22,299 bases of DNA. It comes from an uncultured Nitrospinota bacterium. GTDB taxonomy: Bacteria > Nitrospinota_A > UBA7883 > JAJRTC01. The position numbers and the translations under genes were made by a program. The stretch spans positions 1 through 22,299 of the forward strand of contig CAYNDB010000030.1 of the NCBI GenBank assembly GCA_964395915.1. The letters are read 5' to 3'. A model generated the notes under the pieces. That model ran no database searches. It was not told the DNA's origin and saw only the letters and a list, made by a program, of their open reading frames with translations. Below, piece after piece: positions 15,266 to 21,914 of this stretch. Positions within the stretch are counted from its first letter, which is position 1, and every line of letters begins with the position of its first letter.

Positions 15266-16513
15266 TTACACGTTAGATGAACGGCCCCCTTTAGAGCCGA
15301 TGGTTTCTTCCGGGTAGGCGTCGATATTATGGATGGAAAGATCGGAACCCTCAATTTCCTGCTCTTTAGTCAGGCGCAATCCAATGGTAATGTCGATAAG
15401 CGTATACACGCAATAACCGGCGACAAGCGCAACCATAACCCCCGCTCCGGTTCCTATTAGCTGCGAGAGAAGTGTAACGTCGCCCATTCCACCAAGCTGT
15501 TTGAGCCCAAAGATACCGCAAGCGACGCCGCCCCACGCTCCGCATATTCCATGCAGTGGCCAGACACCGAGCACATCGTCTATTTTGAGTTTCTCCTGCT
15601 CAAATATAAACCCTTTGACAAAAATTATTCCGGCGACACCGCCGACAATCAACGCGCCCAGCGGATGATATTGATCCGATCCAGCGCAGACAGCCACCAG
15701 CCCCGCTAACGCTCCGTTATGGACAAACCCGGGATCGTTTTTGGAGATAACCAGCGCGGCGATGATCCCACCCACCATAGACATCAGAGAATTTACAGCA
15801 ACAAGCCCCGTGATACCGGTGATCTGTTGCGCGCTCATTACGTTAAACCCGAACCAGCCGATGCAGAGCATCCATGTGCCCAGCGCCAGCATTGGTATGT
15901 TGCTTACCGGTATCGGCCTGGATACGCCATCGACCCAGCGGCCATTGCGCGCTCCCAACTTAATGACAGCCACAAGGGCAAGCCATCCTCCCATGGCGTG
16001 GACAACCACCGATCCTGCGAAATCATGAAAGGGAGCCCCTCCGATTCTTTCAAGCAAAGACCCTTCCTGGCCGAGCAATGTGAGCCTGCCCCAGACCATT
16101 CCCTCGAAAATGGGATAGACAATAGCGACGAATATCATCGAGGCCAAAACCTGGGGCCAAAACCTGGATCGTTCCGCAATTCCGCCAGAGATGATAGCTG
16201 GAATGGCGGCGGCAAAAGTTAAAAGAAAGAAAAATCGGGCAAGGTCGTAGCCTCGTAAAGAGCCGACGATCTCTTCGGCGGAGCCGAAAAATGTCAAACC
16301 ATACGCAAGAGGAAAACCTATGAAAAAATAGATAACCGCCGAGAATGCGAAATCGGACAAAATCTTCACGAGAGCGTTAACCTGATTCTTCTTTCGTACA
16401 GTGCCAACCTCCAGAAAGGCGAAGCCTCCGTGCATTGCAAAAACCATCACCGCTCCCAACATCAGGAACAAAACATCCGCGCTGTTTTTAAGTTCGCCTA
16501 TTTCCGCCATCAT
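15266..16513 (-). CDS. amtB: Ammonium transporter (Amt/AmtB family), no cleavable signal peptide
   Basis: The 415-aa polytopic protein has Amt hallmarks ('FLMLGAVMVFAMHGGFAFLEVG', 'DFAGSVVVHAMGGWLALVAVIKLGAR', 'GVWPLHGICGAWGGVA'). It sits 59 nt downstream of glnK, the classical glnK-amtB pair. Confidence 0.92.
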   Translation of the reverse strand: MMAEIGELKNSADVLFLMLGAVMVFAMHGGFAFLEVGTVRKKNQVNALVKILSDFAFSAVIYFFIGFPLAYGLTFFGSAEEIVGSLRGYDLARFFFLLTFAAAIPAIISGGIAERSRFWPQVLASMIFVAIVYPIFEGMVWGRLTLLGQEGSLLERIGGAPFHDFAGSVVVHAMGGWLALVAVIKLGARNGRWVDGVSRPIPVSNIPMLALGTWMLCIGWFGFNVMSAQQITGITGLVAVNSLMSMVGGIIAALVISKNDPGFVHNGALAGLVAVCAGSDQYHPLGALIVGGVAGIIFVKGFIFEQEKLKIDDVLGVWPLHGICGAWGGVACGIFGLKQLGGMGDVTLLSQLIGTGAGVMVALVAGYCVYTLIDITIGLRLTKEQEIEGSDLSIHNIDAYPEETIGSKGGRSSNV

Positions 16514-16572
16514 GTACCTTTAACGCATGAATTGTTTATAAACTCGTTTCTTCAAAATCGAACAGGATCGAT

Positions 16573-16911
16573 TCACACCGCATCTTCGCCCCGTTCGCCA
16601 GTGCGAATACGGACAACTTCCTCCACCGCCATCACGAAAATCTTCCCATCGCCGATTTTACCCATGGACGCGGCGGCGACAATTTTTTCTATGGCCGTCT
16701 CCACCAGATCGTCATTCAGCACAATCTCGACTATAATTTTTGGCAGAAAATCCACCACATATTCCGCGCCCCGGTATGTTTCCGTATGACCTTTTTGTCG
16801 GCCAAAACCTTTAACTTCAGTGACAGTCATTCCTTGCGCCCCGATCTCAGATAGCGCTTTTTTAACCTCATCCAGTTTGAATGGTTTTATGATCGCCTCT
16901 ATTTTTTTCAT
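16573..16911 (-). CDS. glnK: Nitrogen regulatory protein P-II (GlnK)
   Basis: '[17 protein letters not shown]...[38 protein letters not shown]...' has the T-loop Tyr51. The track ORF 16573..16974 is over-extended; the conserved MKKIEAII start with a GGAGAG RBS is at 16911. Confidence 0.93.
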
Positions 16912-17007
16912 AACACAAGCTCTCCTGACACGTTTATAGTTTTCAATTTCTCGCCACGCCAAACAACACCGCAAGCGGATATCTCATCTCCACCTGCGTT
17001 ACAGGCT

Positions 17008-20024: not shown

Positions 20025-20057
20025 CGCTCCTTTATCTTAATTTCCAGCCAATACCGA

Positions 20058-20597
20058 TCAGCCGAAATACATTTTGTTTTTATGTACTATATTTCTGTGG
20101 CAATGTACGCACTTGCCTTTATCTCCCTCAAAACCTTTTGAGTGGGCCAAAAAGCCTCCACGCGGAAGCCCTGAAGGGAACGGGTTCTTGTGACACTTTA
20201 TGCACGAATCGTTCGTCATACTGTGACGGGACATTTCGGCCATTTCTTTTCTGTCCAGGTTTTCCGGATCGCCGAGATAGTGAACATAGGTATCGCGTAC
20301 GCCAAATATTGTCTTCGCTTTGAGCTTGGCCAAAAAACCGGTCGGCAAATGGCAATCGGAACATTCGGCTACGACACCTGTATTGTTGTCGTAGTGAGAC
20401 GATACTCTCCACTCACGAAACATTTCCTCCATCTCGTGGCAGTTGACCGTGCAAAAATCAACCGACGAGGTGAAATCAACCGACCAGGTAAGGACTAAGT
20501 AAAAGCCGCCAATAGCAAATGCCGTAAGAGCCGAAGTGATGGCGACTACTTTTGGATTAGCCTTTTTGAGGATTTTTTCGCCAGTTATTCTTACCAT
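20058..20597 (-). CDS. nrfH: NapC/NirT/NrfH-family membrane-anchored tetrahaem cytochrome c (quinol dehydrogenase)
   Basis: N-terminal TM anchor 'VVAITSALTAFAIGGFYLVL'. Four CXXCH motifs (CTVNCHEM with the NrfH-type CXXCHXM first haem; CSDCH, CIKCH, CVHCH). The start is 9 nt after the amt stop. Confidence 0.85.
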   Translation of the reverse strand: MVRITGEKILKKANPKVVAITSALTAFAIGGFYLVLTWSVDFTSSVDFCTVNCHEMEEMFREWRVSSHYDNNTGVVAECSDCHLPTGFLAKLKAKTIFGVRDTYVHYLGDPENLDRKEMAEMSRHSMTNDSCIKCHKNPFPSGLPRGGFLAHSKGFEGDKGKCVHCHRNIVHKNKMYFG

Positions 20598-20606
20598 AAT
20601 CCGCTC

Positions 20607-21914
20607 TTACCTGAAGGAGCCCAGCGAAGAATCTGGATAGGAGTTGGCTCCGTGCTCGCTAAAGTCGAGCCCATTATATTCGTCTTCAGCGGAGACCCTG
20701 AGACCGCTAAACCTGTCTATTGCCTTGAGCAGGACAAACGTTGTGGGAAAAACCCAGAGAAAACACGCCGCTATACCGATTAGCTGGACACCGATAATTT
20801 TCAGCGAAAACATTTCGGCGCTGTTGAAAAGCCCCACAGCCAGTGTTCCCCATGCTCCACAAACACCATGCACCGAAATGGCGCCGACAGGATCATCCAC
20901 TTTAAAGCGTTCGATTATCGGCACGAAAACCACCACAAGGACTCCCGCAACGGCGCCGGTTATGATCGCAAATAGTGGCGAGAGGCTGGCGCACCCTGCG
21001 GCAATGCCGACAAGGCCGGCCATCGCCCCGTTGAGACTTGTTCCCACGTCTGGCAGACCATACCGCATCCATGCCACTACCATTGCGACAACCGTTCCCG
21101 CCACTGCCGCAAGAGTGGTGTTTATGACAATCAACGCTATGTCGCCATCGCCGACCATCGCGTTTCCGGTATTGAAACCGTACCAGCCAAACCATAGAAT
21201 CATCACGCCAATGGCGGCGAGAGGAAGGTTGTGCCCCGGCAGCGCTTTTATGACGCCATCCTTGCCAAACTTGTCGTTGCGCGGGCCAATGGCGATCGCT
21301 CCCGCAAGAGCCGCCCATCCGCCGACACTGTGAACAACTGTGGAGCCGGCAAAATCAATGAAACCGAGGCTCTCAAGCCACCCGTTTCCATGATACATAC
21401 TTCCCCAGGCCCAGCTTCCGAAGACCGGATAAATAATCGCGGCGAGAGCGGCGGTATAGATAAGATGTGCGATAAACCGTGTTCTTTCCGCCATTGCGCC
21501 TGAAATAATAAGGGCGACAATTGAGCAGAACAGAAGCTGGAGCATCCAGAAAGAGTAGTGTTGATAGTCGCCATCATGGGCAAAGCCTGTGAGAAAAAAG
21601 CCATCAGAGCCAAACAGGCCGGAGCTGGATTCTCCGAACATCAGGCCAAAACCTATCGCCCAATACGCAAACGCCCCGATAGAAAACCCGATGATGGTTT
21701 TCATTATGACGTTCGACGCGTTTTTAGCCCGTGTAAGACCCGACTCCATCAACGTGAACCCCGCCAGCATGATAAAAACAAGACAGGCGGCGATGATCGT
21801 CCATATTGAATTCAGATGGTTCTGGACATCCAACGCATCTGGTATTTCCGCCGCAAACGCATTTTCAGCTATCGCCAAAAACGCAATACAAAATATAATT
21901 ATTCCGTTTTTCAT
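20607..21914 (-). CDS. amt: Ammonium transporter (Amt family) with a cleavable N-terminal signal peptide
   Basis: The 435-aa protein has the signal 'MKNGIIIFCIAFLAIAENAFAAE', then Amt core motifs ('DFAGSTVVHSVGGWAALAGAIAIGPR', 'SVHGVCGAWGTLAVGLF'). It is the first gene of the minus-strand cluster. Confidence 0.9.
   Translation of the reverse strand: MKNGIIIFCIAFLAIAENAFAAEIPDALDVQNHLNSIWTIIAACLVFIMLAGFTLMESGLTRAKNASNVIMKTIIGFSIGAFAYWAIGFGLMFGESSSGLFGSDGFFLTGFAHDGDYQHYSFWMLQLLFCSIVALIISGAMAERTRFIAHLIYTAALAAIIYPVFGSWAWGSMYHGNGWLESLGFIDFAGSTVVHSVGGWAALAGAIAIGPRNDKFGKDGVIKALPGHNLPLAAIGVMILWFGWYGFNTGNAMVGDGDIALIVINTTLAAVAGTVVAMVVAWMRYGLPDVGTSLNGAMAGLVGIAAGCASLSPLFAIITGAVAGVLVVVFVPIIERFKVDDPVGAISVHGVCGAWGTLAVGLFNSAEMFSLKIIGVQLIGIAACFLWVFPTTFVLLKAIDRFSGLRVSAEDEYNGLDFSEHGANSYPDSSLGSFR

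Follow-up and report, generated by a model that had tools for sequence, protein, structure and literature searches.

An NrfH-linked octahaem cytochrome c encoded with ammonium channels and GlnK in a Nitrospinota contig: a putative nitrogen-scavenging operon

Why does a contig of an uncultured Nitrospinota bacterium carry genes for an octahaem cytochrome c and an NrfH-type quinol dehydrogenase in one row with genes for ammonium channels and a P-II signal protein? The stretch in question comprises positions 1 to 22,299 of contig CAYNDB010000030.1 (assembly GCA_964395915.1) and is called the window here. An earlier note on this DNA had described six genes on its minus strand as a respiratory-type module inserted into a sigma-54-type glnK-amt locus. 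Our check of the window's open reading frames (ORFs), together with profile searches, recovered the same six genes at 15266-21914, in the same order, on the same strand, and with unchanged coordinates. In operon order, they are:

20607-21914, minus strand: Amt1, an ammonium channel with a signal peptide, gene 1 of the operon (PF00909, E 3e-109)
20058-20597, minus strand: NrfH-type tetrahaem cytochrome c, presumed quinol dehydrogenase and electron donor to Hao (PF03264, 113.7 bits)
18780-20018, minus strand: Hao, a periplasmic octahaem cytochrome c of the HAO family, presumed nitrite/hydroxylamine reductase (PF13447, 125.9 bits)
17008-18768, minus strand: SPFH/Band 7 (flotillin-like) membrane protein, presumed scaffold (PF01145, 36.4 bits)
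16573-16911, minus strand: GlnK-type P-II signal protein of 112 residues (PF00543, E 2e-33)
15266-16513, minus strand: Amt2, an ammonium channel, signal peptide absent (PF00909, E 1e-88)

The answer that we favour, with moderate confidence, is that these six genes form one sigma-54-dependent nitrogen-scavenging operon, in which a quinol-driven periplasmic enzyme would reduce nitrite (or hydroxylamine) to ammonium for uptake through the Amt channels. The gaps between the genes are, in operon order, 9, 39, 11, 96, and 59 nt. Four of these values agree with the earlier list, which gave 33 nt for the second gap on the basis of a TTG start of Hao (ORF end 20024). The product of that start had no match in an exact-sequence look-up, whereas the ATG at 20018 follows an AGGAG 8 nt upstream and yields a 412-residue product that is the recorded protein; the ATG is thus the real start, which sets the distance from NrfH to Hao at 39 nt. 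In the gaps of the operon, no site like a terminator or a sigma-70 promoter was found (both scans of the window were at chance level), and the 96 nt before glnK revealed no promoter of their own. The short gaps and the lack of intergenic terminators suggest that the six genes are co-transcribed.

Hao has a Sec signal peptide and eight CxxCH motifs (at residues 40, 67, 97, 148, 186, 206, 256, and 303), and its PF13447 score is far above the cut-off of 21.9 bits. In searches of the PDB, its closest solved relative is IhOCC of Ignicoccus hospitalis (4qo5), with an E of 3e-46 when the single sequence is used and of 5e-74 with a profile of 35 Hao sequences, which covers the C-terminal helices too; Nitrosomonas HAO, Kuenenia HAOr (6h5l, E 2e-35 with the profile, far behind IhOCC), HOX (KsHOX), and HDH follow. 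Foldseek returned the same set of IhOCC, HAO, HAOr, and HDH (probability 1.00, TM score about 0.4) for an AlphaFold model of Hao, which contains no haems, has a pLDDT of 77, and is too loose for residue-level claims, so that it serves family assignment only. The protein had been labelled "HAO/ONR-like", with profile searches proposed as a check against an unrelated multihaem family; these place it in the HAO family, near IhOCC, and the ONR half of the label was dropped. ONR of Thioalkalivibrio (3sxq) is marginal by sequence (E 0.003) and has a fold E above 2. An identity as NrfA was ruled out as well (PF02335 16.7 bits versus a cut-off of 24.1, NF008339 16 bits versus 595, fold E above 2), and Hao contains no CXXCK, the motif of a Lys-ligated catalytic haem. 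A PDB search with the C-terminal 84 residues alone gave lectin-repeat matches, which are spurious.

The residues D214-H215 of Hao align with D291-H292 of HAO (6m0p) and are invariant in 35 family members; from the structural work on HAO, we take Asp291-His292 of NeHAO to lie beside the catalytic haem and to have a role in catalysis. HAO proteins of ammonia-oxidising bacteria carry at the C-terminus the motif GGWTYTEGW with the Tyr (NeHAO Tyr491) that is cross-linked to the catalytic haem of the adjacent subunit and renders HAO oxidative, as seen in P0243 and P0244, the two that reach this motif among the fragmentary sequences retrieved with an NeHAO fragment query. There is no GGWTYTEGW in Hao. 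The profile-profile alignment with HAO stops about 59 residues short of the motif region, and the call that the Tyr is absent therefore rests on the missing motif and on Tyr/Phe variability: among 35 members, family position 382 has 25 Tyr and 10 Phe, and position 389 has 34 Tyr and one Phe; the corresponding IhOCC residues are Trp and Tyr. With moderate confidence, then, Hao is predicted to lack the cross-linking Tyr, its C-terminal 60 residues not being alignable with HAO. Since IhOCC is the best match, GGWTYTEGW is missing, and the C-terminal Tyr is variable, Hao is presumably a reductive member of the HAO family of the IhOCC/epsilon-Hao type, the likeness to epsilon-Hao being drawn from published descriptions. 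IhOCC is an octahaem nitrite reductase without P460 that also reduces hydroxylamine (PMC9250108), and four recombinant epsilon-Hao enzymes reduced both nitrite and hydroxylamine in work cited in PMC8042395.

The tetrahaem protein is NrfH-like, as had been proposed. It exceeds the PF03264 cut-off of 24.1 bits by a wide margin, its sole PDB match is NrfH of Desulfovibrio vulgaris (2j7a_C, E 3e-11), and it has a transmembrane segment (residues 16-38) and the haem motifs CTVNCH, CSDCH, CIKCH, and CVHCH. The CHEM at haem 1 (CH-x-M) is kept in 13 of 13 aligned NrfH-like homologues, and D. vulgaris NrfH has CHIM at the aligned position; from the D. vulgaris NrfHA structure, we take the Met two residues past the haem 1 His to be a haem ligand and to mark NrfH as opposed to NapC/CymA. 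The NrfH equivalog test failed (TIGR03153 77.9 bits versus a cut-off of 134.2), and the protein is accordingly called NrfH-like, not an NrfH equivalog. Its first haem motif is CX3CH (residues 49-54, 20451-20468), not CXXCH. This motif reads CTVNCH in the window, CTVKCH in the related locus L083, and CSSQCH in L084 and L085 (loci are cited by our own numbers), and the CX3CH sub-clade comprises the window, L083, L084, L085, L097, L099, and L101; CXXCH stands at haem 1 in remoter NrfH-like homologues and in D. vulgaris NrfH. Because the one-residue insertion is conserved in the sub-clade, it is not a sequencing error.

To what extent do other genomes keep these genes together? The HAO-type family is large (more than 7000 matches). 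A close set of loci, with Hao 54-88% identical to that of the window, was recovered from metagenome contigs and by exact-protein look-ups; a distant set of at least 80 loci, with Hao 43-54% identical, was listed by a family-alignment search of species-representative genomes. In the close set, the order Amt1-NrfH-Hao occurs in every locus with enough flank, that is, in at least 12 independent loci (L083-L092, L097, L099, L101-L104, and L106), so the order is not due to chance. What surrounds this core varies as follows:

Amt1-NrfH-Hao-SPFH (585 residues): the window and L099/L100
Amt1-NrfH-Hao-FGE-domain protein-Band_7 (400-444 residues): L084/86, L085, L087-L091 (marine water column), L102, L103, and L104; L092 is cut off within the FGE gene
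GlnK-Amt2-Amt1-NrfH-Hao: L097 (then a porin) and L101 (then GlnA)
Amt1-NrfH-Hao only: L106

The GlnK-Amt2 pair lies downstream of the core in the window and L085 and upstream of it in L097 and L101. The picture of a module "inserted into" a glnK-amt locus was thus given up: Amt1 is a co-inherited part of the core, and GlnK-Amt2 is a movable neighbour that may stand upstream, stand downstream, or be absent. Insertion by horizontal transfer was rejected likewise, GC being even across the window and Amt1 belonging to the conserved core. Other genes of nitrogen assimilation recur around the core: GlnA adjoins the cluster in L101 and L104, and sigma-54 activators are found near it in L101, L102 (a GAF-sigma-54 activator at 2807-4468), and L103. 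A receiver-ANTAR regulator takes this place in L104, where GlnA, a porin, and this regulator were seen near the cluster (179-1591 and 3997-4596).

The distant set looks different. None of the listed loci with a 43-54% identical Hao has the Amt-NrfH arrangement. Rieske and cytochrome b genes stand in front of Hao in 14 of the 62 listed distant loci with at least 2.5 kb upstream, and eight of these 14 also have Amt genes (the Nitrospira type, including N. moscoviensis); another three of the 62 have an NrfH-like gene, Amt being absent, and a fourth such locus, L073, was left uncounted for its short upstream flank. In a neighbour-joining tree of 94 Hao proteins, the 13 Amt-NrfH-linked ones form one clade and those linked to Amt and Rieske/cytochrome b form another. 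In as many as 45 of the 62 listed loci, the strand that carries Hao has no NrfH-like or Rieske/cytochrome b gene up to 4 kb away from it, so the electron donor of most HAO-family members is not obvious from context; the neighbours of the partnerless Hao genes that were spot-checked are mostly ORFs without Pfam domains, and no consistent partner was seen among them. At the far end of the family, a metagenome locus of 23% identity (L095, 10000-19000) has tandem Hao-like genes with NrfH-like, Rieske, and cytochrome b genes and resembles the multi-Hao clusters of anammox-type organisms.

The region upstream of Amt1 contains three further features:

22107-22122, minus strand: sigma-54 type -24/-12 element TGGCAaacataTTGCT (GG-N10-GC), the only site in the window with one mismatch or fewer
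22172-22209, minus strand: three heptamer repeats, AGGCGTC-N10-GACGCCT-N7-AGGCGTC, 50-100 nt upstream of the -24/-12 element
21915-22098, minus strand: leader of about 180 nt from the sigma-54 site to Amt1, a possible attenuator by its folding

The element TGGCAaacataTTGCT matches 10 of the 11 specified bases of the sigma-54 consensus TGGCAC-N5-TTGCW and lies 208 nt upstream of Amt1. A site with at most one mismatch in the window is not significant by itself (0.55 expected by chance), but a sigma-54 element occurs within 350 nt upstream of the cluster's first gene in eight of 12 independent loci, with 0.034 expected per locus (binomial P 8e-10). It is from this conservation across related loci, combined with the motif, that a sigma-54 promoter is predicted here, in agreement with the sigma-54 label of the earlier note. 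The linkage to nitrogen-assimilation genes, shuffled yet persistent, and the conserved promoter type make the strongest available case that the module may serve nitrogen acquisition. The AGGCGTC/GACGCCT repeats are unlike the enterobacterial NtrC consensus and are candidate sites for an enhancer-binding protein; dyads of the form TAGGCR...GCGCCTA were seen upstream of the sigma-54 sites in L097 (about 6210-6260) and L099 (about 1360-1420). The leader can form a pair of strong hairpins next to each other (22053-22080 and 22027-22051) and also a weak one with U6 after it (21959-21983), with a minimum free energy of -44.6 kcal/mol (z -2.0); a search of the leader against Rfam gave no family match. 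Since a receiver-ANTAR antiterminator gene lies just upstream of the L104 cluster, leader-based control is conceivable.

The two ammonium channels share only 35% identity. Amt1 is a 435-residue protein with a cleavable signal peptide (MKNGIIIFCIAFLAIAENAFA/AE), and its TIGR00836 score is 393 bits (cut-off 343). Aligned with solved Amt proteins, it has the equivalents of D160, both pore His, W148, and F215; at the equivalent of S219, it has Asn. Its closest solved relatives are 6eu6 (E 1e-94) and the 644-661-residue chains 8qj3/8qpf, top matches that we take to be Amt-domain ammonium sensors, and the classical transporters score far worse (AfAmt-1 E 9e-57, E. coli AmtB E 7e-47); a signalling domain is absent from Amt1. 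The Amt1 orthologues of the related loci are 52-81% identical to Amt1 of the window, compared with 33-37% for Amt2-type proteins, and for this reason the first Amt is regarded as integral to the module. GlnK has the T-loop Tyr51, and Amt2 starts 59 nt downstream of it; its NCBIfam scores (NF008111 175 bits, NF007946 153 bits) are both under the equivalog cut-offs. GlnK and Amt2 make up a canonical GlnK-Amt pair.

The fourth gene is no stranger in this row, as an SPFH gene follows Hao in most relatives. Its product in the window (about 585-586 residues) matches PF01145 over residues 252-458 (cut-off 23.6 bits); the sequence also shows a pair of hydrophobic segments near the N-terminus and, at about 435-520, a coiled-coil stretch rich in Ala, Glu, Lys, and Gln. 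With a Band_7 domain, a predicted membrane anchor, and a predicted coiled-coil tail, it qualifies as an SPFH protein, of the flotillin or another subfamily, which we label flotillin-like. L099/L100 have a 70%-identical orthologue at the equivalent position. In seven further lineages, a different Band_7 protein of 400-444 residues comes after an FGE-domain gene, and beyond the shared Pfam domain no similarity was found between these proteins and the 586-residue SPFH protein of the window. The FGE-sulfatase-domain (PF03781) and Band_7 genes lie at 11239-13462 in L084, 6015-8267 in L085, 8272-10373 in L102, 8268-10391 in L103, and 8399-10791 in L104, and also occur in L087-L091; the window and L099 have no FGE gene and instead have the SPFH protein of about 585 residues, which is of another type. 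PF03781 includes NirV of nirK clusters.

How might such an operon work? Under nitrogen limitation, an enhancer-binding protein would activate the -24/-12 promoter upstream of Amt1. The NrfH-type protein, anchored in the inner membrane, would oxidise (mena)quinol and pass the electrons via its four haems to periplasmic Hao, which would reduce nitrite (six electrons), and also hydroxylamine, to ammonium, as IhOCC and epsilon-Hao do in vitro. Ammonium formed in the periplasm, where it would be at risk of escape, could be captured by the co-transcribed, signal-peptide-bearing Amt1, plus Amt2, and GlnK would close the channel(s) once nitrogen suffices, while the SPFH protein would probably hold together or stabilise the membrane components. 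A periplasmic route of this kind could do without a nitrite importer and without ferredoxin or NAD(P)H; its price is that ammonium arises outside the cytoplasm, and this would make sense of a dedicated importer as the first gene. A more specific version, which we regard as speculative, is that Amt1, NrfH, Hao, and the SPFH protein (with the FGE protein in most relatives) form a membrane-organised complex in which Amt would capture ammonium or hydroxylamine before it is lost through the outer membrane. If so, this complex would be the missing assimilatory nitrite reductase of the Nitrospinota outside Nitrospinia and of several uncultured lineages, including marine water-column ones, and the first SPFH scaffold within a nitrogen-cycle enzyme system.

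Several points weigh against the assimilatory operon that we favour. The product of the Amt-NrfH-linked Hao clade is not readable from family membership alone, since Kuenenia HAOr, also Tyr-less, forms NO and not ammonium with physiological donors (PMC8042395). The neighbour-joining tree in which this clade appears carries no support values. No good sigma-54 site was found within 350 nt in L087-L091 (marine water column), L101, L103, and L106; the gene for the enhancer-binding protein lies outside the window; and an internal promoter could sit in the 96-nt gap before glnK. Orthology between the SPFH proteins of one sub-clade and those of the other could not be demonstrated from their sequences. 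Finally, the classical role of NrfH-type modules is in respiration, and nitrite reduction with quinol could benefit energy metabolism at the same time.

Does the proposed operon have precedents? Octahaem enzymes had been thought foreign to PII/Amt assimilation loci, a view that Nitrospira contradicts. In N. moscoviensis and N. japonica, an octahaem protein of the same family is encoded beside amtB/glnK/glnA; its expression occurs when ammonium is absent, and assimilatory nitrite reduction is the function proposed for it (PMC5767232, PMC6311188, PMC12342949); the arrangement GlnK-Amt-Amt-Rieske-cytochrome b-Hao was confirmed in L031 (N. moscoviensis) and L002. The two systems share the enzyme family (the L031 Hao is 49% identical to that of the window), an octahaem gene directly beside two Amt genes and GlnK, and an adjacent quinol-oxidising membrane partner. 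However, this partner is a Rieske/cytochrome b complex in Nitrospira, whereas the window has NrfH there and no Rieske/cytochrome b gene; moreover, in Nitrospira no SPFH or FGE gene comes after Hao, the Amt genes are not of the Amt1 type, and the Hao proteins fall in a clade separate from the Amt-NrfH-linked ones. The concept of a periplasmic assimilatory octahaem enzyme, already proposed for Nitrospira, is not new. What seems undescribed is the architecture: the NrfH partner, the co-inherited first-gene Amt, the SPFH gene (plus FGE), the separate Hao clade, and the host phylum. In the literature that we searched, no such operon is described for Hao/NrfH with SPFH/flotillin or with Amt clusters, which is weak evidence, as subscription journals were mostly outside the search. 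From the earlier proposal of a quinol-driven module feeding Amt under PII/sigma-54 control, we thus retain the functional reading, which the family assignment, the NrfH partner, and the conserved linkage support, but not the insertion or the want of precedent.

The remaining comparisons concern parts of the system. The epsilon-Hao of Nautilia profundicola and other Campylobacterota is likewise a Tyr-less octahaem protein with a tetrahaem partner of the NapC/NrfH family, AmtB is involved, and nitrite assimilation has been proposed (PMC3701875); however, hao, cycB, and amtB are dispersed in Nautilia (NAMH_1280, 0559, 0397, and 0215; PMC3701875), and here they are in one operon with GlnK. IhOCC, the best solved relative over almost the full length of Hao, C-terminal helices included, and a nitrite reductase that lacks P460 (PMC9250108), differs in its archaeal origin and in a length greater by about 110 residues; identity in the structure alignment is roughly 24%. 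In NrfHA of D. vulgaris and Wolinella, too, a membrane-bound tetrahaem NrfH with CH-x-M at haem 1 feeds a periplasmic multihaem nitrite reductase that forms ammonium. The catalytic subunit of the window, however, is not NrfA, having no CXXCK and eight haems rather than five; its NrfH has a CX3CH first motif and is below the equivalog cut-off, and the context is assimilatory, not respiratory. As in canonical glnK-amtB loci, a P-II gene with Tyr51 lies directly upstream of an Amt gene under predicted sigma-54-type control, but the pair in the window is the tail of a longer operon headed by a redox module.

Could the module nevertheless be respiratory? In that case, NrfH-Hao would replace NrfHA as the terminal reductase of respiratory nitrite ammonification (DNRA, the dissimilatory reduction of nitrate to ammonium), and Amt would recover the by-product. 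This fits the CH-x-M haem 1 signature of respiratory NrfH in the partner, the proposal of Hao-type enzymes as DNRA enzymes in NrfA-less thermophiles (PMC5276818, PMC6896113), the classing of IhOCC among the dissimilatory reductases (PMC9250108), and the origin of the closest relatives, several of them recovered from hydrothermal-vent metagenomes. However, nap/nar, formate dehydrogenase, and hydrogenase genes are missing from the window and from the 12 related loci examined; what is conserved around the module is GlnK, Amt, GlnA, and sigma-54 elements, not regulators of anaerobic respiration; and a respiratory enzyme needs no co-translated ammonium importer as the first gene of its operon. We consider a respiratory function in place of assimilation unlikely; the two are not mutually exclusive and could coexist.

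The Nautilia model raises another alternative, a strict reversal of the hydroxylamine:ubiquinone redox module (HURM), in which Hao would reduce nitrite to hydroxylamine only, Amt1 would import the hydroxylamine, and a cytoplasmic Hcp/Har would convert it to ammonium. That model combines Hao, a NapC/NrfH-type cytochrome, hydroxylamine uptake by AmtB, and Hcp, and both amtB genes are up on nitrate (PMC3701875); a dedicated, divergent Amt fused to the module, as here, would suit it. In L103, an Hcp (Prismane) gene stands divergently beside the cluster (1820-3469, minus strand), with small desulfoferrodoxin-like ORFs, and this is the sole neighbour that hints at a hydroxylamine intermediate. By contrast, no Prismane-domain ORF is found among the large ORFs scanned in the window, unlike in Nautilia, where Hcp is part of the pathway, nor in related loci other than L103; Amt1 keeps the ordinary Amt pore residues; and free hydroxylamine is made less likely by the ability of epsilon-Hao and IhOCC to reduce hydroxylamine too (PMC8042395, PMC9250108). 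We judge this alternative improbable. Still more doubtful is that the module detoxifies hydroxylamine or NO in the periplasm and plays no part in nitrogen nutrition: HAO-family reductases turn over both compounds (PMC8042395), and settings with suspected hydroxylamine stress are rich in Hao and Hcp genes (PMC8940962), but the invariant first-gene Amt, the GlnK/GlnA neighbours, and the sigma-54 promoters would go unexplained, and no NO-responsive regulator of the NsrR/NorR type was seen in the loci. The least credible idea is that Hao forms NO from nitrite, as Kuenenia HAOr does, and that Amt1 senses or gates ammonium instead of taking it up. HAOr (6h5l), which forms NO (PMC8042395), is among the fold and sequence matches, and we take the closest solved Amt chains (6eu6; 8qj3/8qpf) to be Amt-domain sensors. 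Against this, IhOCC is by far the better match (E 5e-74 versus 2e-35), the 435-residue Amt1 lacks a signalling domain, the module is linked to no NO-consuming enzyme, and Amt, GlnK, GlnA, and sigma-54 are left unexplained.

Assimilatory nitrite reduction is normally assigned to cytoplasmic NirA or NirBD. Genomes without these enzymes are scored as unable to use nitrite nitrogen, and a conserved periplasmic route, as the scavenging operon proposed here would provide, would change such reconstructions; likewise, the abundant metagenome matches to hao, often read as nitrification or hydroxylamine metabolism, would need re-reading. The operon would also give a genetic handle on the in vivo role and product of Tyr-less Hao, and the fixed partnership of Hao with a specific Amt and an SPFH protein makes product capture, or channelling from a periplasmic enzyme to a membrane channel, testable. 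It would matter most for the metabolic reconstruction of Nitrospinota and for the reading of environmental hao genes. The host, a member of Nitrospinota, is probably outside the nitrite-oxidising Nitrospinia: the best named relatives of the window's glycine-cleavage gene gcvPB are from Nitrospinae/Nitrospinota metagenome-assembled genomes (69-75% identity, compared with 59% for Nitrospina gracilis), and an identical gene string occurs on contigs of metagenome assembly GCA_006243105.1. Nitrospinota outside Nitrospinia have been reported to be without known assimilatory nitrite reductases, in a comparative study in which Hao goes unmentioned (PMC10839748), and the module could therefore fill their nitrite-assimilation gap.

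The rest of the window has an even GC content (0.44-0.53) with no sign of a foreign island. On the plus strand, 3699-8497 encodes a UPF0047 protein followed by a gcvT-gcvH-gcvPA-gcvPB string, and a tRNA-Glu(CTC) gene follows the gcv genes at 8963-9038; the strand opposite to the gcv group encodes DciA, a 600-residue TPR protein, and a LolB-like lipoprotein. A plus-strand gene group at 9347-15208 converges on the amt operon. It begins with a response regulator of the receiver-HD-GYP type (9347-10420) and includes a di-haem protein of the cytochrome c peroxidase/MauG family (10968-11999), the stop codon of which overlaps the start of a gene for a 1070-residue hybrid histidine kinase with a DAHL periplasmic sensor and PAS, GAF, PAS, HisKA, HATPase, and receiver domains. 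That a periplasmic di-haem protein is translationally coupled to a sensor kinase points to a pair that may sense redox state or oxidants.

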